Assembly: GCA_031459385.1 (NCBI GenBank) | Contig: JAVKIP010000004.1 | Span: forward strand, 64,001-128,000 | Direction of reading: 5' to 3' | From: Candidatus Fervidifonticultor secundus | GTDB taxonomy: Bacteria > Sysuimicrobiota > Sysuimicrobiia > Sysuimicrobiales > Humicultoraceae | DNA: 64,000 nt | In this document: piece by piece, positions 42,839-52,539 of the stretch | How positions within the stretch are numbered: the first letter of the stretch is position 1 | Layout of the letters: the number at the start of each line of letters is the position of its first letter | Position numbers and translations under genes: made by a program | The notes under the pieces: generated by a model | Told to the model about the DNA's origin: nothing | Databases searched by the model: none | Seen by the model: only the letters and a program-made list of their open reading frames with translations

Positions 42839-43747
42839 GTGGAGTCCGGGCTGATCTTGATCCCCATCCTGATCCTGGCGGGCGGTGCGATCGCCTATGT
42901 GGGCAACGTCGTCGGCCGGACCACCGGCCGGCGGCGGTTGACCCTCTTCGGCCTGCGGCCCCGGCATACGGCGCAGGTGATCACCGTCGCCACCGGCGTG
43001 CTCACCACCGTGGTCACCGTCGTGGCGATCCTGCTGGCGTCCAGCGACGCGCGCACAGGCCTGTTCCACCTGAACGCGCTGCGCGAGCAGATCCGGCAGG
43101 CCGAGGCCCGGCTCGAGCAGATCAAGCAGGGAGACATCGCCTACCTCCGCGCCCAGGAGGTGCTGCGGGAGGTCATCGACGGTCGGCGGCCGGTGGAAGA
43201 GATCCAGGCGCGGCTGGACGCCATGCGCCTGCGCGCCGTGGACCTGGCCGTGGCCAAAGGCATCGCCCCGGATCTCGTCAGCGGCGCGGTGCTCTTCCTC
43301 GACCCGCCCAACGTCACGTGGGAGGCGATCGCCCGCCTGGTCGCGAGCCGGCGCGGCGAGACCATCGTGCGCATCGTCGCGGCTGAGAACACTCTGCGAG
43401 GCGAGGCGCTCCGGGTCTTCGTCATGCGACATGACCGCACGCTGGCGTATCGGGCGGGCACGCGCCTGGGCAGCGGGGTCATCGATGGACGGGTCGGCCG
43501 CGAACGCGTGGGCCTCGAGCTCCTGGCTCTGGTGGATCGGGTGACCGAAGGCGCGGCGTCCAGGCTGCTGTCCCCGCCGTTCGCACGCATCACCGACCCG
43601 CCCCCGACCCAGGTGGACGTGGACGAGCACCGCCGCGCCGTGACCGAGATCCTACGCCGGGGCGGCGAGGTGCGCGTCGACGTCGTCGTCCGACGCGATG
43701 TGACCACCGAGATGCCGCTCGTCGTGGGCTTCGCGCTGAGCCCCTGA
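42839..43747 (+). CDS. DUF3084-like protein
   Basis: GGAIAYVG...GRRRLTLFGLRPRHTA..ITV.TG N-terminus, AAENT motif. Confidence 0.78.
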   Translation: MESGLILIPILILAGGAIAYVGNVVGRTTGRRRLTLFGLRPRHTAQVITVATGVLTTVVTVVAILLASSDARTGLFHLNALREQIRQAEARLEQIKQGDIAYLRAQEVLREVIDGRRPVEEIQARLDAMRLRAVDLAVAKGIAPDLVSGAVLFLDPPNVTWEAIARLVASRRGETIVRIVAAENTLRGEALRVFVMRHDRTLAYRAGTRLGSGVIDGRVGRERVGLELLALVDRVTEGAASRLLSPPFARITDPPPTQVDVDEHRRAVTEILRRGGEVRVDVVVRRDVTTEMPLVVGFALSP

Positions 43748-43824
43748 GCGCACCGGCCGCGCCGCCGGCAGGAGGCGGGGGGCCGAGGGCGAAGAGAGAA
43801 AGTAAGATCAACCGCATAGCGAGC

Positions 43825-44016
43825 GGCGCAGGTGGACGGGGGAACGTGTGGGGTGTCCCCGTCAGAATAGGGAAGTCCGGTGATCCCGGCTTTGGGAGAA
43901 GCCGGCGCGGTCCCGCCGCTGTGACGGAGAGTCCGGCAGCCGCACGTGCCACTGGGAGGAGTCCCGGGAAGGCCGGCTGCGGGCGATGACCCGAAGCCAG
44001 AAGACCTGCCTGCGCC
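43825..44016 (+). ncRNA. Cobalamin (B12) riboswitch
   Basis: P1 GGCGCAGGT/GCCTGCGCC; AATAGGGAA, CCGGTG, GTCCCGCCGCTGT, GCCACTG..GGGAAGG, B12 box AGCCAGAAGACCTGCC; -10-like TAAGAT at 43803; upstream of a TonB receptor. Confidence 0.95.
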
Positions 44017-44055
44017 CATGCCGCACGCCTTCGAGGCAGAGGAGGTGGGCAGGAG

Positions 44056-45900
44056 GTGTGTCTCTCCCGTTGCGTGGCGGCCCGCGGGGCCGCCGTGTTC
44101 GTTTTCGTGACGTCGCTCGCCGGCGCGCCGCAGCCCGTGGCAGCGGTGGCGTTGCAGGAGCCCCCGGTCTTCGAGTTGCCCGACGTGGTGGCGCCGGGTC
44201 GTCGCCTCCAGCCACGCACTGCGACGCCGGCGAACGTCTCGGTGCTGACCGCCGCCGATCTCGCCCGCCTGGGCGTGCGCACCGTCGGCGAGGCGCTGGC
44301 CTACCTGCCCGAGGTCTACGTGCGCAGCCTGGGCGGGCCGGGCGCGCTGCAGGAGATCAGCATCCGCGGCACCAGCTCCGCCCACACGTTGGTGCTGCTG
44401 GACGGTGTGCCGCTCAACAGCCCGGCGCAGGGGCTGGCCCAGCTCAACACCATTCCCGTCGACATCGTCGAGCGCATCGAGGTGCTGCGCGGGCCGTTCT
44501 CCGCCATCTATGGCAGCGGCGCGCTCGGCGGCGTCGTGCGCATCGTCACGCGTCGCGCGCCGGGGGGGGCAGCCCGCGCGGGCGCCGGGACCCAGGGCAG
44601 CGCGCACGCCATCACGACCTGGGGGTGGCGGCGGGACGGCGCCGGCGTGCGCCTGGACGCGGTGCACGATCGCAGCCAGGGCTTCCGCCCCAACAGTGAC
44701 TACGCCGGGTCGACGCTCGCCGGGCGGCTCACCCTCGATCTGGGCACGGGCCGCACCTTCTCCCTCGGCCTCTCGCAGTTCTGGGCCGACCAGGGCGTGC
44801 CGGGTTCCACGGCGTTCCCCTCGCCCCTGGCCCGCCAGCAGAGCGGCCGGACGGCGCTCGATGCCGTCTGGCGGCTGGAGGGGCCGGCCGACCACCGCCG
44901 CACGCTGCGCGCCTGGGGCCTCGCCGACGACATCACGTTCACCGATCCGGCCTTCGCCGCAACGACCCGCACGCGCGCCACCGCCCTGGGGCTCGAGGGG
45001 CAGGCGATCCGCTCGCTGTCGGCCGCTCACGTGGTCACCGTCGGGTGGGAGGTGCAGCGGCACGCCGTGGAGATGCAGTCGAGCTCGCTGTTCGGCACGA
45101 GCGCGCTGGTCCGGGACGCCTGGGTGGGCGCCCTCTACGTCGCGAGCGACCGCACCCTGGATCCGGCGACCCTGCTGTCGGGCGGCCTGCGGGTCGACCT
45201 CCACAGCGTCTACGGCAGTCAGCTCAACCCCCGCGTCGGGCTGGTCCGCCAGCTGGACGATCGGACCGTGCTGCGGGCTGCGGTGGGCCACACGTTCCGC
45301 GGCCCCTCGTTCCTGCTGTTGTTCTTCCCGGGGTGCAGCAACCCGGCGCTGGCCCCGGAGCGCGCCTGGGCGGCTGACGCAGGCCTCGAACGCACGCTGG
45401 CCCCGGGACTGGTGGGGCGGCTCGTGGCATACGCCACGGTGGCCACCGATCTGATCCGGCCCGGCTGCCCGCCCGTCAACGTCGACCGCGCCACGATCGT
45501 CGGCGCCTCTGCCGAGCTCGAGGGCCGGCTGGCACCCGCGCTCGCGCTGCGCGCGCACGTCACCACTACCAACGGTCGCGACGGCGCCGGCGGCGCCCTG
45601 ATCCGCGTGCCGGCCTGGAGCGCCGCCGCCACGCTGCACTGGACGGTCCGGCCGCAGACGACGCTGAGCCTGCTGGCACTCTACGCCGGTGCGCGGCCCG
45701 ACCTCGACTTCTCCACGTTTCCCGCCACGCCCGTCGTGCTGCCGGCCTACACCGTGCTCGGCCTGCGCTACACGCTGGCGACCGGCGCCGGCACGTGGCA
45801 GCTGGGCGTCGACAACCTGCTGGACGCGCCGTATGAGCCGGTGGCGGGCTTTCCGGCGCCCGGTCGGACGGTCTTCGTGTCGTACGCGACCAGCTTCTGA
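44056..45900 (+). CDS. btuB: TonB-dependent receptor, probable cobalamin transporter
   Basis: Plug motifs ISIRG, LVLLDGVP, IERIEVLRGPFSAIYGSGALGGVV; NPALAPE, VDNLLD, PGRT, terminal Phe; riboswitch upstream. Confidence 0.9.
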   Translation: MCLSRCVAARGAAVFVFVTSLAGAPQPVAAVALQEPPVFELPDVVAPGRRLQPRTATPANVSVLTAADLARLGVRTVGEALAYLPEVYVRSLGGPGALQEISIRGTSSAHTLVLLDGVPLNSPAQGLAQLNTIPVDIVERIEVLRGPFSAIYGSGALGGVVRIVTRRAPGGAARAGAGTQGSAHAITTWGWRRDGAGVRLDAVHDRSQGFRPNSDYAGSTLAGRLTLDLGTGRTFSLGLSQFWADQGVPGSTAFPSPLARQQSGRTALDAVWRLEGPADHRRTLRAWGLADDITFTDPAFAATTRTRATALGLEGQAIRSLSAAHVVTVGWEVQRHAVEMQSSSLFGTSALVRDAWVGALYVASDRTLDPATLLSGGLRVDLHSVYGSQLNPRVGLVRQLDDRTVLRAAVGHTFRGPSFLLLFFPGCSNPALAPERAWAADAGLERTLAPGLVGRLVAYATVATDLIRPGCPPVNVDRATIVGASAELEGRLAPALALRAHVTTTNGRDGAGGALIRVPAWSAAATLHWTVRPQTTLSLLALYAGARPDLDFSTFPATPVVLPAYTVLGLRYTLATGAGTWQLGVDNLLDAPYEPVAGFPAPGRTVFVSYATSF

Positions 45901-46041
45901 GGTCAGGCACCCCGTGCGCGTGGTGCGCACGCAAGGAGCCGCGCCCGGGCCTGGTCGAATTGCACAGCGAGATCGTCCGGCGGCGGGTGCGGCCGCGTGG
46001 CGTGCCGGCTGTTCGGATCGCGCTGAACCGGGAGGACGCAG

Positions 46042-46569
46042 ATGCACAGACGGTGGATCGTCATCGCGGGGTTGATCGCCGCTGCGGCCGCGAGCCGGCT
46101 GCTGCCCCACCCGCCCAACGCCACGCCCATCGCGGCGATGGCGCTGTTCGGCGGCGCGCACCTGGCCGACCGGCGGCTGGCGCTCCTGCTGCCGCTGGCC
46201 GCCATGCTCGCCAGCGACCTGGTGCTGGGGCTCCACGCCCTGCTGCCGGTGGTCTACGGCGCGTTCGCGCTGATCGTCTGGATCGGCACACGCCTGGCCG
46301 GGCGCATCACGCCGGTGCGCGTGGCGGGCGCGACCCTGGCGGGATCGGTGCTCTTCTTCGTCGTCACCAACGTCGGCGTGTGGGCGCTGGGCGGGCTCTA
46401 TCCGCGCACGGCGGCCGGGCTCGTCGCCGCGTACGTGGCGGCGGTGCCGTTCTTCCGGAACATGCTGCTCGGTGATGCTGCGTATGCGCTGCTCCTCTTC
46501 GGCGGCTACGCGCTGCTGGAGCGGACGCTGGCGACCGCCCCGCATCCCGCGCAGGCCGATCGGACCTGA
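46042..46569 (+). CDS. DUF6580-like small membrane transporter (ECF S-component/BtuM-like)
   Basis: SRLLPHPPNATPIAAMALF, SDL, FFVVTN, PFFRN; about 6 TM segments; SD GGAGG. Confidence 0.75.
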   Translation: MHRRWIVIAGLIAAAAASRLLPHPPNATPIAAMALFGGAHLADRRLALLLPLAAMLASDLVLGLHALLPVVYGAFALIVWIGTRLAGRITPVRVAGATLAGSVLFFVVTNVGVWALGGLYPRTAAGLVAAYVAAVPFFRNMLLGDAAYALLLFGGYALLERTLATAPHPAQADRT

Positions 46570-47519
46570 TGGGACCACGGCTCCCCGTGCTGCTGCTCGT
46601 CGCAGGTCTGGGGGCTGCGGTCGCGGGCATGCGTCCGACCGCGCCGCAGCGGCCGTGGCCGCCGGCGGCGGGCCAGACTCCCATCCCGGTTGGATCTCCC
46701 CGGGGCGGGATGGCGACATCCGGCGCCGGACCGACCGCCGTCGAGGAGGCGGGCCTGCGCGGCGAGACGTCGGCCGTGGGCCCGTCCTCCGACGCCGCGC
46801 CACCCCGACCCCTGGTCGCCACACGGCCCCGCCCGCGGGCGGGCAGCGCGCGACGTGTGGTTCCCCCGGTGCCGCAGCGGCTGGCGGCAGCGCAGGCCCG
46901 GGCCCAGCGCGCCACGACTGCCGCCACGCAGAGCCGGCCGGGGTCCACCCGGGACGCGCCGGCGCGGACCGCTCCCGCCGGGCCGATTCCACCGCAGGCG
47001 GCGCCTGGCCCGGCCGCCCGGCCGGGAGGGCATGCCGCCGACGCGGGCTCGACGCCCGGGCAGCCGGCTGGCGAGGCCGGGGCCACCGGGGCCTCCTCGG
47101 CGCCCGCGCCCGACGAGCCGGCATCGTCCGGTGGGCCTGCGCCTGCGCCGGTACCTGATATGCCGCCGGCGAGCCGCCCGCCAGCGGGCGCGCCGCGCGC
47201 GCCCACGCTCACGCCGCCGGTGCCGGTCGACCTGGCGCCGCCGCACTATCCCGGACCGTCCCGCATGGTCGTCGAGGCTCCCGGCGTGGTGGCATCGGCG
47301 CGCGTCGAGCCGGCCGATGCGCGCGTCCGGCTGCGGCTGGTCGTGCTGGCCGATGGCACCGTTGGGAGCGTGGCCGTCGCGCTGTCATCCGGCCGCGCCG
47401 ACCTCGACGCGGCCGCGCTGCGGGCCGCGCGCGCCTGGCGGTTCCTGCCGGCGCGCCGCGACGGTGTGCCCGTCGACAGCGTGGTGCTGATCTGGGTGCT
47501 GTTCACCGCCGCGCCCTGA
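46569..47519 (+). CDS. tonB: TonB family energy transducer
   Basis: N-terminal TM, Pro/Ala-rich linker, YP...VRLRLVVLADGTV..SSGRADLDAAAL..WRFLPARRDG. Confidence 0.85.
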   Translation: MGPRLPVLLLVAGLGAAVAGMRPTAPQRPWPPAAGQTPIPVGSPRGGMATSGAGPTAVEEAGLRGETSAVGPSSDAAPPRPLVATRPRPRAGSARRVVPPVPQRLAAAQARAQRATTAATQSRPGSTRDAPARTAPAGPIPPQAAPGPAARPGGHAADAGSTPGQPAGEAGATGASSAPAPDEPASSGGPAPAPVPDMPPASRPPAGAPRAPTLTPPVPVDLAPPHYPGPSRMVVEAPGVVASARVEPADARVRLRLVVLADGTVGSVAVALSSGRADLDAAALRAARAWRFLPARRDGVPVDSVVLIWVLFTAAP

Positions 47520-49544: not shown

Positions 49545-50222
49545 CTACGTCGGGAACGATCGGTCGCGCAGCCAGCTCAGGGCGCCGGCTACCAGCGCGA
49601 CGTAGAGGACCGCCAGGCCCGCGTACTGCGCCGGCCGCGGCAGGGCAAACAGGGGCGCGAACGGCCTGACCAGCGCCCGGGGAACCAGCGGGATCAGGAA
49701 CGGCACGCGCTCCCGGTACGCCAGGTACCCCTCACCGAAGCGGCGCTCGTTCTCGCCCTCCTCGTGGATCATGAGGGCCAGGTAGGTACAGCACGCGGTC
49801 ACGAAGGCGATGACCGAGATCGGCCGCACGCCGACCAGCGAGAACCCGGCCAGCCCCAGGAAGATCCCCAGGTACTGCGGGTGGCGGACCACGGCGTACG
49901 GCCCGGAGGTGACCAGGCCCAGGCGGCCGCGGACGCTGTAGAAGTAGGCGTACGACCCCAGGAAGACCACTAGCCCCAGGGCAATGAGCGCCAGCCCCGC
50001 GTAGAACAGCATGACCCGCGTCTCCCGCGGCATCCAAATCGTATGGGTCACCAGCCAGCGGGTCTGCGGAAACCAGACGAACGGTGTCCACGGCGCGTAG
50101 ATGGCCACGAAGATGCCGACCGGCAGGAACATGTATCCCTGGATCACGAGCACCAGGCCCGGGGAGGCGAGAATGACCGGGGTCGCCTGGACCACGGCAC
50201 GCCAGATCTTGCGGATCGACAT
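49545..50222 (-). CDS. ICMT/PEMT family membrane methyltransferase
   Basis: LVTSGPYAVVRHPQYLG, EE..RFGEGYLAYRERVPFLIP; SD-like AGGGTGA. Confidence 0.82.
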   Translation of the reverse strand: MSIRKIWRAVVQATPVILASPGLVLVIQGYMFLPVGIFVAIYAPWTPFVWFPQTRWLVTHTIWMPRETRVMLFYAGLALIALGLVVFLGSYAYFYSVRGRLGLVTSGPYAVVRHPQYLGIFLGLAGFSLVGVRPISVIAFVTACCTYLALMIHEEGENERRFGEGYLAYRERVPFLIPLVPRALVRPFAPLFALPRPAQYAGLAVLYVALVAGALSWLRDRSFPT

Positions 50223-50490
50223 CGTGCAGTCACCCTGCATGTGGAGTCGGGGAGCGCCCCGCCACGGGGAGGACGTATTCGGGAGCCAGCGGGGTCTTCC
50301 TCCCCGGCGACCCCCTGCCTGCTCGGGGAACCTGGGGTCGGCCAGGGGACGGCGCCAGGCGGGCCCGGGTGAGCGCGATGGGACGGGTCCCCTGCCTGTG
50401 GGCCGGGCGGGTCGCCACAGAGGAGTCTGGCCGCCCCTGTCGAAGGATAAGCATGGTTGTAGAGCCTGCGAGCCGCCCGATGCCGGAGCC

Positions 50491-50532
50491 TTGCCGAGAA
50501 AGGGGGCGGAACGCTAATGTATACGTGGCGTT
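50491..50532 (+). promoter_or_regulatory. Candidate overlapping sigma70-like (TTGCCG-N18-TAATGT) and ECF-like (GGAAC-N17-GTT) promoters
   Basis: TTGCCG 50491, TAATGT 50515; GGAAC 50508-50512, GTT 50530-50532; AT-richer patch. Confidence 0.45.
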
Positions 50533-50539
50533 GTTGCGC

Positions 50540-50808
50540 TGCGTTCTCTGACTCCCGGCAGACTCCCGCATCCGGGGTGCCAGGTAAGTAGGTCTGGGCA
50601 GTTGTCACAGCGTGTCCGCTGCCGCGGCCGCAGAGGCTAAGCGGCCTTCCCGGAAAGGAGGGGTGAGCCAGGCAGGGAGGCGCGACGGCGGCGGGACGGC
50701 GGGCTGATCGGGAGAGACCGCGGAGGAAGAGGAAACACGCACACTCGTTCCCCCGCGGCGGCATTCCGTGACGCCCGTACTACCCAACAAAGGGGGAACG
50801 GACCAACG
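50540..50808 (+). ncRNA. Long structured 5' leader of the SLH-barrel gene; family not recognised
   Basis: Nested complementary segments and an anti-SD (see findings). Confidence 0.5.
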
Positions 50809-52539
50809 ATGAAGCAGTTAGCTGTGGTGCTCGCAGCGATACTGACGCTCACGCTGGTCGCACCCGCCTTCGCGCAGCCGTTCGCGGACGTGCCCACGGA
50901 CCACTGGGCGTACGACGCGATCGCCGAGCTGGCGGCGAAGGGCCTCATCGAGGGCTATCCCGATGGGGCGTTCCGGGGCGACCGCGCCATGACCCGCTAC
51001 GAGATGGCCATGGTGGTGGCGCGCCTGCTGGCGCGCATCGAGGCCATCAAGATCCCGCCGCTGCCGCCCGACCTGGTGCGCCGCGCCGAACTCGCGAAGG
51101 CGCAGGCGGCCGAGGCGGCGGCGCGCACCGCGCTCGACAAGCGCCTGACCAGCAAGCTCGCCACGATCCAGCGCCTGGTCGCCGAGTTCCGCGCGGAGCT
51201 CGCAGCCCTGGGCGTGCGGGTGACCGCGGTGGAGGAGGAACTGGCGGCGATCCGGGCGCGGCTCGACAACACCCGCATCGCTGGTGATCTGCGGTTCCGG
51301 TACAACGTCTCCGAGGCGGGCACCTCCGACGGCCGGCTGCGGACCCGGATTCAGTTCAGCGGCCGCGGCGGCCCGAACACCGAAGTGGTGGTGCGGCTCT
51401 TCACGGCCAACAACGCCGGCGTGGGCGGATCCTACGACACCCGGTTCGGCCTGCACACGTTCTTCGGGAACGTGTCGTTCGACCGTCTGTACCTCGACAT
51501 CCGGAACACCTGGGGCGCGACGCTGTGGCGGGCCGGCCGGCAGCACTACACGCTGAACGGCCTCGGCCCCTACGGCACCGGCCTGCTCTACGACCCGCAG
51601 AACGCCGTGGGGTTCGCGGGGTTCCAGGGCCGGCATCAGGTCTCGGCAGCCAACGCCGCGCTCGACGTTCCCTACACCGCGGGCATTCCCGGCACCAGCG
51701 ACGGGCTGCGCTCTGACTGGGCGCTCGGGCCGCTGAACGTGACGGCCGCGGTCTTCGTCGAGCGCGCCAACGTCGCCCTGCCGGCCGCCGGCGGAGTCAG
51801 CGCGGCGGTCGTGCGCGACAACCAGATCCTCACCGTCTCCAGCAGCCAGCTGCTCCCCGGCTGGACGCTGGCGGGCAGCTACTACAACCAGGCCATCAAC
51901 CCCGTCAACCCCGCGAACTTCGGCGGGCGCGGCTGGGAGTTCGTGGCCACCGGCACGCTGTTCCCGGGCCTGTCGGTCTACGGCAACTACGCCTCGTGGA
52001 ACGGCAGGCCGGTCGCAGGCGGCCCCGACTGGGGGTCGGCGAACGCCTGGCGTGTGGGCGGGAACCTGAACCTCGCCCAGATCGCGGGCATCGCCGCCTG
52101 GAACCCGACCCTGGACTTCCAGTACCACCAGTACGGTCCGCTGCCTGCCGCCTGTGCCACGGCGCTGACCGTCGGCGGTGGCGGCTATAGCGCCGCCGGC
52201 GGCGGCTGCTTCCCGTCCCACACCTACGCCACGACCATCGTCGGGCAGGCGTTCGCCTTCAACATGCGGGGCTGGCTGGCGCGGCTGAACCTGACGATCA
52301 CGCCGCGCACCGTGGCCAGGATCCTCTACGAGGGCGGGACCGTGCTGTGCGCGAGCGCGGGCTGCGCCACGACCGGGAGCTACTACGAGTGGTGGCTGCG
52401 GCTCGAGCACACCGTGGCGCCCAACACAACCCTGACCCTGAACTACTACAAGGCCAACGCCTCGCCGGCGGCCCTGGCGGGGACCGCCACCGGCGACTAC
52501 CTGAACTTCTACCGGGCTGAGCTGCTGTACTCCTGGTAA
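50809..52539 (+). CDS. SLH domain + coiled coil + beta-barrel protein (OmpM/SlpA-type OM-peptidoglycan tether/porin)
   Basis: Signal peptide AFA-Q, single SLH (FADVPTDHWAYDAI..GYPDG.FRG..MTRYEMA), coiled coil EFRAELAALGVRV, beta strands, terminal LLYSW. Confidence 0.88.
   Translation: MKQLAVVLAAILTLTLVAPAFAQPFADVPTDHWAYDAIAELAAKGLIEGYPDGAFRGDRAMTRYEMAMVVARLLARIEAIKIPPLPPDLVRRAELAKAQAAEAAARTALDKRLTSKLATIQRLVAEFRAELAALGVRVTAVEEELAAIRARLDNTRIAGDLRFRYNVSEAGTSDGRLRTRIQFSGRGGPNTEVVVRLFTANNAGVGGSYDTRFGLHTFFGNVSFDRLYLDIRNTWGATLWRAGRQHYTLNGLGPYGTGLLYDPQNAVGFAGFQGRHQVSAANAALDVPYTAGIPGTSDGLRSDWALGPLNVTAAVFVERANVALPAAGGVSAAVVRDNQILTVSSSQLLPGWTLAGSYYNQAINPVNPANFGGRGWEFVATGTLFPGLSVYGNYASWNGRPVAGGPDWGSANAWRVGGNLNLAQIAGIAAWNPTLDFQYHQYGPLPAACATALTVGGGGYSAAGGGCFPSHTYATTIVGQAFAFNMRGWLARLNLTITPRTVARILYEGGTVLCASAGCATTGSYYEWWLRLEHTVAPNTTLTLNYYKANASPAALAGTATGDYLNFYRAELLYSW

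Follow-up and report, generated by a model that had tools for sequence, protein, structure and literature searches.

Within the 5′ leader of a gene of the OmpM type, positions 50612-50783 of the window, by which we mean the whole 64,000-nt stretch of DNA that was analyzed, encode an RNA structure of about 172 nt that is conserved and present in a single copy. This leader is a real, uncatalogued, and widely kept structured RNA, and the role that we favor for it, tentatively and with rather less than even confidence, is that of a constitutive leader that docks the 30S subunit, stabilizes the message, and offers a factor-binding P5 loop, rather than that of a switch. The long structured leader that an earlier note on this DNA had placed before an OmpM/SlpA-type gene is confirmed by covariation across 51 leaders, and its standing as a candidate new cis-acting RNA is strengthened by a conserved fold that finds no match in Rfam. 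Indeed, a permissive E-value scan of positions 49800-51200 against Rfam 15 returned a best E of 0.37, with all hits far below gathering, and the leaders of 20 orthologous loci of many phyla were likewise without a match in Rfam 15, in agreement with the previous statement that no known riboswitch is matched here.

The leader lies in a 568-nt intergenic gap between divergently oriented genes, the GC content being of about 66-74% across the intergenic region and its neighbors. The gene that follows it encodes a 576-aa protein in which Pfam SLH is matched at residues 24-67 (E 9.7e-13), and whose N-terminus resembles both the SLH-domain chains 8bys and 8bym of the PDB (E 4.7e-23 and 9.6e-21) and SlpA (7zgx, E 1.3e-13); a Pfam search beyond SLH gave no further match. 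From this resemblance, which is read from the N-terminal SLH part, the gene served by the leader is probably of the OmpM/SlpA type, an assignment that we regard as partly supported. Relatives of the protein occur in 41 of 41 related genomes, with an almost invariant N-terminus. In diderm bacteria other than Proteobacteria, proteins of the OmpM type anchor the outer membrane to the cell wall and are among the most abundant proteins of the cell.

The features of the locus are given below, where R1 is a covariance model built from 12 cores of the family, with P3 added by eye, and where A5 is an alignment of 51 distinct leaders to R1, a fitting that favors structure in the pairing figures marked with it.

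49545-50240, minus strand: PEMT/ICMT-like methyltransferase gene, the other flank of the divergent intergenic region.
50491-50520, plus strand: putative promoter, with a -35 element TTGCCG (50491-96), an 18-nt spacer, and a -10 element TAATGT (50515-20).
50523-50544, plus strand: 5′-proximal hairpin ACGUGGCGU-UGUU-GCGCUGCGU, directly after the predicted transcription start site (TSS).
50612-50783, plus strand: conserved structured core, 172 nt, the extent of the match to R1 (142.7 bits).
50616-50694, plus strand: domain 1, a three-way junction in which P1 encloses hairpin P2 and stem P3.
50616-24/50686-94, plus strand: P1, found de novo by RNAalifold on 28 leaders, 82-86% paired (A5).
50626-29/50635-38, plus strand: P2 hairpin, 91% paired (A5).
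50644-50/50675-83, plus strand: P3, 78-93% paired (A5), closing the loop 50651-74.
50651-50674, plus strand: P3 loop; its SD-like run, GGAAAGGAGGGGUG at 50652-65, is complementary to the 3′ tail of 16S rRNA.
50699-50778, plus strand: domain 2, a single long hairpin P4-P4b-P5, whose MFE structure is the consensus.
50699-704/50773-78, plus strand: P4, 97.5% paired, with covariation.
50709-13/50764-68, plus strand: P4b, 92% paired, with covariation.
50718-31/50744-58, plus strand: P5, 78-100% paired (A5), with covariation.
50732-50743, plus strand: P5 loop GAAACACGCACA, 12 nt, cross-phylum consensus R-N-A-A-C-N-N-G-N-N-N-A with AG/CU closing.
50779-50791, plus strand: A/C-rich linker from the fold to the SD, defined by composition over 51 leaders.
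50792-96 and 50809-11, plus strand: true SD GGGGG and start codon ATG, read from the sequence, their position being kept in orthologues.
50809-52539, plus strand: SLH-domain protein gene of the OmpM/SlpA type, 576 aa, with Pfam SLH and PDB matches.

The evidence for the fold comes in the first place from covariation. In A5, with its bias toward structure, 88.2% of cells are paired, against 67.5 ± 0.7% in shuffles (a value reached by none of 500), 36 of the 38 pairs show double changes, including every pair of domain 1, and the covariation score amounts to 0.453, where shuffles give 0.155 and slid partners 0.05-0.09. The same helices are obtained from MAFFT-only alignments as from the model-fitted one. 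Furthermore, RNAalifold recovered P1 and the tip of P5, with compensatory changes, from 28 order-wide leaders, and P1, P2, P4, P4b, and P5 from the 12 family cores, and 13 leaders of the family can be aligned over about 300 nt, where they share the invariant block GAGGAAAC..CG...ACTC. When all positions were scanned against all others, leaving out six badly aligned rows (L059, L062, L070, L071, L029, and L023), the pairs of the model ranked highest, and none of the additional tertiary, pseudoknot, or antisense pairs looked for was convincing.

Folding energies tell a more graded story, and the z-score check proposed earlier came out differently according to the segment taken: over the whole 340 nt delimited by the earlier note, the z-score is −1.10, no better than shuffles, when it reaches −2.33 for the 172-nt core (3 of 200 shuffles being as stable) and −3.13 for domain 2 (50696-50780), the latter being present in the free MFE of 8 of the 8 leaders inspected. 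The poor score of the whole segment, together with the mechanical ORFs that overlap the leader region, is what could be put forward for chance pairing in GC-rich noncoding DNA, or for an unrecognized coding region. Such an explanation is contradicted by the covariation, by the single-copy specificity, and by the recurrence across phyla described below, and we hold it to be extremely improbable; the overlapping ORFs, which have no Pfam family above the cutoff, were rejected as genes.

All the pairings listed in the earlier note are present as standard pairs in this sequence, at the positions given there, and they fare unequally in A1, the MAFFT alignment of the 13 family leaders. Two of them are helices of the present model, with double changes in A1: 50616-24/50686-94, which is P1 (81-86% paired), and 50718-31/50744-58, which is P5 (78% paired, double changes in four pairs). 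Conversely, two of the five upstream helices were rejected as not conserved, namely 50552-57/50709-14, with 31% of cells paired and a clash with P4/P4b, and 50565-69/50699-703, with 65.5% paired, two of its five pairs kept, and a collision with P4. The others hold in part: 50626-31/50641-46 is 81-85% paired in A1, but mostly through G-U pairs and in competition with P2, the rival pairing of its 5′ strand, which displays true compensatory changes (e.g., GGUU/AACC), and the small CCC/GGG helix around GGAAAGGA is 87% paired in A1 but never covaries, its 5′ strand covarying instead with a partner further downstream, in what we describe as P3.

The structure is as specific as it is conserved. R1 matches the genome under study exactly once, at the core, and detects orthologues on which it was not trained down to an E of 2.9e-8. 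At E <= 0.01, a single site each is found in 43 of 94 genomes, a set that corresponds to the order and that is identical at phylum scope, with 20 of 33 genomes in family f1, 9 of 22 in f2, 13 of 23 in f4, and 0 of 12 in f5; these tallies count two unpublished genomes (G019 and G010) as nonmatches. All 43 of these sites directly precede an OmpM-like N-terminus. In four leaders (L013, L017, L020, and L026), R1 found no match significant at E 0.1, and P5-like hairpins are visible there by eye.

Beyond the phylum, a protein-based scan keeping one genome per species gave a sample of 80 OmpM-like loci, whose record titles name Armatimonadota, Bacillota, Vulcanimicrobiota, Xenobia, Dialister, and others. 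At E < 0.05, R1 matches 26 of these 80 loci, always just upstream of the gene and on the same strand. The P5-loop pattern is found in 52 of the 80 upstream regions (29.2 kb), against none on the minus strand, none in 67.9 kb of downstream sequence, and one in 28 kb of far-upstream sequence. A second cross-phylum hallmark accompanies it, a loop GAAAGGAGG(U)G that is enclosed by a stem and has complementarity to the 16S 3′ tail: a purine-rich SD-like run lies 30-140 nt upstream of the P5-loop pattern in 39 of the 52 loci, and when this run is held unpaired, at least six enclosing pairs can form in 38 of the 39 (mean z −0.96).

The P5 regions were compared in A8, a gapless and structure-blind 50-nt alignment of 51 distinct sequences from many phyla. 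The P5 stem is 73.2% paired in it, against 61.7% in shuffles (none of 500 reaching the observed value), and the loop positions A22, A23, C24, and G27 never vary, when the stems around them span from GC-rich to pure A/U. A 50-nt P5 model built from A8 (R2) yielded 11 sites in five whole genomes, that is, one in the genome under study, three in the genome of L140, five in that of L106, and one in each of two others. Eight of these 11 sites lie 26-95 nt before SLH genes, two precede signal-peptide proteins without a Pfam family, and one is doubtful. Within the phylum itself, 60 of the 94 genomes have a single R2 site each, by a tally of model matches. Only P5 has been modeled across phyla, so the membership of distant taxa in a two-domain class rests on the pattern counts and on the constrained folds.

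The constancy of this loop can be accounted for in another way, by supposing that P5, perhaps together with the purine loop, is the operator of a trans-acting regulator, either a conserved protein or a small RNA, that would couple OmpM synthesis to the state of the envelope. An example of such a device would be autogenous feedback by the unassembled protein, which has reportedly been found for slpA of Thermus. The operator would make sense of four invariant nucleotides (A22, A23, C24, and G27) over 51 sequences of very different GC content and with unrelated stems, as well as of the occurrence of the motif before several paralogous OMP genes of one genome (3 of 3 R2 matches in G094) and before two signal-peptide proteins without SLH in G095, which fits a regulon-type signal. 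Yet no candidate factor was found, the all-against-all scan gave no covarying tertiary or antisense partner, and literature searches on OmpM untranslated regions, RNA motifs, mRNA hairpins, and the Thermus slpA leader mRNA returned no report of such regulation and nothing otherwise relevant. CsrA was rejected as the factor of the P5 loop, PF02599 being absent from the genome under study and from three of five carrier genomes, and GAAACACGCACA being devoid of GGA. On balance, we take an operator to be rather unlikely, if worth keeping in mind.

In a broader extension of these data, which we regard as possible but somewhat unlikely in its entirety, the leader would belong to an ancient, hitherto undescribed class of leader RNAs that serve outer-membrane protein genes in diderm lineages of the Terrabacteria type, in which the 30S subunit would be captured by the loop complementary to the 16S tail and a conserved factor would be read via the P5 loop, the synthesis of the tether being thereby set by a dedicated ribo-regulator and not by an ordinary RBS. 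MAGs carrying this proposed class are labeled Armatimonadota, Bacillota, Vulcanimicrobiota, and Dialister.

The complementarity of the P3 loop to the ribosome deserves a quantitative look. The 3′ end of the 16S rRNA is unassembled in the genome under study (the model match covers positions 9-873), and on account of this truncation the tail of G002, a genome of the same genus whose 16S rRNA ends in GGAUCACCUCCUUUCU, was taken for the duplex calculations. The predicted duplex with this tail amounts to −18.0 kcal/mol for the P3 loop versus −10.7 kcal/mol for the true SD, and a value of −18.0 kcal/mol is reached by just five distinct sites on both strands of the 64-kb window. By the same prediction, 44 of 51 leaders have a P3 loop that outbinds the true SD; the seven exceptions are for the most part loops that R1 truncated. 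In the free MFE of the leader under study, the SD-like run pairs with a CCUUCC strand, so its exposure in a loop rests on covariation and not on energy; this pairing also weighs against a docking role.

An SD-like run of this strength might be thought to drive a short upstream ORF that controls the main start or is coupled to it, as in a leader-peptide device, and nine relatives do possess an ORF of 44-48 codons that begins 3-13 nt downstream of the run and ends within an AUGA overlapping the main start. A start codon stands within this range in just 17 of 51 leaders, though, and in the leader under study none was found 3-13 nt after the run; moreover, conservation tracks base pairs rather than codons, and open frames are expected at 70% GC. 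A conserved upstream ORF was accordingly rejected on these start-codon counts, and we deem a device of this kind very unlikely.

The central claim of the earlier note was that of mutually exclusive folds sequestering the SD. As we would phrase it, the 3′ strand of P5, CGUUCCCCC (50746-54), would act as an anti-SD, pairing either with the 5′ strand of P5, in an ON state that leaves the SD free, or with the true SD, in an OFF state, the choice depending on a ligand or factor sensed by the fold. The leader does contain a perfect 9-bp anti-SD:SD helix, a P5 5′ strand (GGAGGAAGAG) that is itself SD-like, and, in its core, a structured domain of sensor type with covariation, as a switch would possess. 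In one genus, a joint change can even be seen by eye between the partner and the SD flank (GUGUCCCC/GGGGACAC vs. CUCGUCUU/GGGACGAG). The covariation of the orthologous leaders nevertheless sustains the core fold and not an anti-SD:SD helix in a fixed register: the pairing 50746-54/50792-800 is 70.2% paired in A1, where shuffles give 66.9 ± 1.6% (the observed value being reached by 16 of 500) and a one-column slide gives 65.8%. The complementary partner shifts between the 3′ strands of P5 and P4b among lineages, the C-tract is missing in one family, and neither a terminator nor a riboswitch match accompanies the fold.

Energetically, the alternative is disfavored as well. Enforcing the anti-SD:SD helix raises the energy from −44.6 to −33.3 kcal/mol in a 120-nt context, a cost of 11.3 kcal/mol, and from −133.6 to −128.0 kcal/mol in the 289-nt leader, a cost of 5.6 kcal/mol, so the two folds lack the closeness in energy that an exchange would need. 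The anti-SD strand is indeed the 3′ strand of a covariation-supported hairpin within a very stable domain, and P5, P4b, and P4, all supported by covariation, would have to be broken. What survives is a weaker form of the idea, in that many relatives show, between the RBS and the 3′ half of domain 2, a complementarity that slightly exceeds what is expected from composition. In a free register over 51 leaders, the RBS pairs with its own domain-2 3′ half at −16.4 kcal/mol versus −14.2 kcal/mol with swapped ones (0 of 5,000 permutations, kin not being independent), and the complementarity has a mean z of −0.88 against dinucleotide shuffles, with 23 of 51 leaders below −1 and the leader under study at −1.42. 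A G-rich SD and the C-rich strand of a GC-rich helix are, for their part, complementary by composition. Given the missing fixed-register signal, the energy cost, and the weak free-register excess, a switch is not supported, and we judge it doubtful, below the operator in our estimation. The slight excess over composition is likewise unneeded by an “always on” leader, and counts against the docking role.

A related matter is the accessibility of the SD itself. It sits 3′ of the fold, in a linker that is rich in A and C and poor in G, the core ending about 8 nt short of the SD region; across 51 leaders, the median linker is 15 nt long, with an A+C content of 80.5% and 11% of G against 39% in the core, and the distance from the core end to the start codon is of 16-34 nt in the 51 distinct leaders. 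In predicted ensembles, the SD is unpaired for 35% on average, and 45 of 49 leaders favor a state in which it is paired, frequently within a weak CCC/GGG hairpin formed locally, the mean advantage being 3.1 kcal/mol, figures that come with no baseline from other genes and that leave out L061 and L068, both missed by the SD pattern. Both figures speak against a docking leader with a permanently open RBS.

Returning to the constitutive docking and stabilizing leader, the following mechanism may be envisioned. The P3 loop would be a high-affinity docking site for the 30S subunit, of the “standby” or STAB-SD-like kind, a reading that follows from a loop–tail duplex predicted to be stronger than that of the SD, from an enclosed run in 38 of 39 loci, and from the lack of a conserved upstream ORF. 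The docked 30S subunit, the stable helices, and the 5′-proximal hairpin could together shield the leader from 5′-end-dependent decay, and ribosomes would be kept beside an open RBS, an arrangement suited to a very abundant envelope protein. That the RBS may be open is suggested by the A/C-rich linker and by the presence of domain 2 in the free MFE of all eight leaders mentioned above. The invariant P5 loop, finally, would be a sequence-specific contact for a conserved partner; a plain stabilizer would leave this 12-nt cross-phylum loop unexplained, which counts against a docking role stripped of such a partner. The fallback option of the earlier note, a stabilizing S-layer-type leader, comes near to this best reading.

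As for the decay machinery, RNase E/G and RNase Y are present in the genome under study. A search of this 97.6% complete genome for RNase J (TIGR00649) gave a best score of 23 bits against a cutoff of 400, and a strictly RNase-J-dependent STAB-SD was rejected since no RNase J stands above the cutoff. The classical STAB-SD blocks RNase J1, for which no counterpart was found in this genome, a point that tells against the docking role.

The 5′ end of the leader is placed less firmly. The putative promoter block keeps its position across the 13 family leaders of A1 but its sequence is non-consensus, which is another point against the docking role. From this block, the TSS is predicted at about 50527. 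A scan of 50100-50900 for sigma-70 promoters and terminators returned 0 sites, and in a strict scan, 10 of 51 leaders had a promoter-like site that matches at least 9 of 12 positions and lies 35-201 nt upstream of the core. At the place aligned with the 5′-proximal hairpin, RNAfold predicts a hairpin in 12 of the 13 family rows, the stems being unrelated in sequence and the segment being missing in one row; the protective role assigned above to this hairpin is a presumed one.

Transcription of the leader is weakly suggested by RNA-library contigs of relatives. A 354-nt contig from a hot-spring RNA library, originating from a relative, spans P5 together with 135 nt of sequence upstream of it and the start of the coding region, and a second contig of this library matches the leader of L008, DNA carry-over being possible for both. 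The RNA run X2 provided a single contig, covering 50799-51082, and the run X1 provided none; coverage of the leader began no further upstream than 50724 in any run, a gap that we do not count as evidence against transcription. That the library contigs derive from relatives and may reflect carried-over DNA also counts against the docking role.

From a wider perspective, a leader conserved from genomes of about 25% GC to genomes of 75% GC, and across phylum labels, represents a new RNA family to catalog. Its displayed “super-SD” within a fold offers a natural case for testing standby-site and STAB-SD ideas outside Bacillus, and its P5 loop would provide a sequence handle for a factor coupling envelope growth to outer-membrane protein synthesis. 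The motif also flags OMP genes in uncultured lineages.

Among known systems, SD-sequestering riboswitch platforms share with this leader a fold located upstream of the RBS and an anti-SD-like strand with an alternative partner; unlike them, it has no Rfam match, and its alternative helix is both non-covarying and energetically disfavored. The stabilizer of the E. coli ompA 5′ UTR consists of a 5′-terminal stem-loop and ribosome binding. The ompA system resembles the present one in having a long leader that precedes the gene of a most abundant outer-membrane protein, in the hairpin, here predicted, at the 5′ end, and in the RNase E/G found in the genome. To our knowledge, no sequence or structure homology is to be expected between the two leaders, and that of ompA differs in that it is not known to have a displayed super-SD loop or a loop sequence kept across phyla.

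The STAB-SD, as presented in passages of PMC4113751, is an SD-like sequence of the 5′ UTR that binds the 16S 3′ end and the 30S subunit and stabilizes the mRNA, as in the cry3A mRNA of Bacillus thuringiensis (Agaisse and Lereclus 1996; Mathy et al. 2007, as cited in PMC4113751). Unlike the STAB-SD of these passages, which mention no accompanying conserved structure, the run described here is held in the stem-closed loop of a conserved two-domain fold, some 125 nt downstream of the predicted 5′ end, and the blocking of RNase J1 by a bound 30S subunit does not carry over to a genome in which no RNase J was found above the cutoff. The likeness to what these passages describe lies elsewhere: in both cases, an SD-like sequence with complementarity to the 16S 3′ end stands far upstream of the real start, does not initiate translation, and precedes a very highly expressed gene, and a 16S-complementary, noninitiating SD-like run of this kind is precisely what the present leader contains.

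In the alignment of the 13 family leaders, two further conserved blocks were found upstream of the putative −35 element (TTGCCG, 50491–50496), and a hairpin is predicted near the 5′ end of the putative leader transcript:

Features flanking the putative promoter
50421–50445, block 1, GGAGGAGTCTGGCC...CGTCGAAGG, conserved in the 13 family leaders
50473–50490, block 2, GCCGCCCGATGCCGGAGCC, adjoining the putative −35 element, conserved in the 13 family leaders
50523–50544, 5′-proximal hairpin, just 3′ of the predicted transcription start

Read on the minus strand, block 1 resembles TTCGAC-N17-CAGACT, a possible promoter for the divergent methyltransferase gene, and block 2 could be a regulator or UP-type site. 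The segment aligned with the 5′-proximal hairpin is predicted to form hairpins in 12 of the 13 family leaders, albeit with unrelated stem sequences, and is missing from the remaining one; such a predicted structure would fit a role in 5′-end protection. As for the enzymes and regulators of RNA turnover, the organism's own genome (97.6% complete) encodes an RNase E/G, scoring 488.7 bits, as well as an RNase Y at 730.6 bits, the loci concerned being C1:257169–258491, C2:33185–34417 and C12:158958–160472 (contig:position), and neither an RNase J above the cut-off nor CsrA was found in it.

Closer to the main gene, the spacer between the Shine–Dalgarno (SD) sequence and the start codon (50789–50811 in the window) is kept within families as AACGGACCAACG, UAACGAGCAG and AAUGGGCAGC, and ACGAG recurs in it, here and in the orthologues, a motif complementary to the CUCGU that is near-invariant in the 3′ strand of the tip hairpin P5. 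In the leaders of nine relatives (L002, L008, L010, L011, L012, L018, L019, L041 and L058), a frame of 44–48 codons starts 3–13 nt 3′ of the SD-like run in the P3 loop and terminates within an AUGA overlapping the start codon of the main gene. The window's own leader has no comparable start at this distance behind the run, and these frames may be a chance product at 70% GC.

With regard to sampling, the order-wide and phylum-wide searches cover the identical 94 genomes; the phylum, as sampled here, amounts to just one order. The nearest public records bear no more specific title than "bacterium", "Armatimonadota bacterium" or "Bacillati bacterium ANGP1". Upstream of the leader neighbourhood, the ORF at 43141–47124 (minus strand, 1,327 aa) matched no Pfam family.

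Finally, in one carrier genome (G095), a P5-type hairpin lies 49–50 nt upstream of two genes for signal-peptide proteins (L165:3–458 and L169:843–1442), which have neither an SLH domain nor a Pfam family. Since the hairpin also precedes such non-SLH genes, the P5-type motif may be a mark of outer-membrane proteins in general, beyond OmpM.
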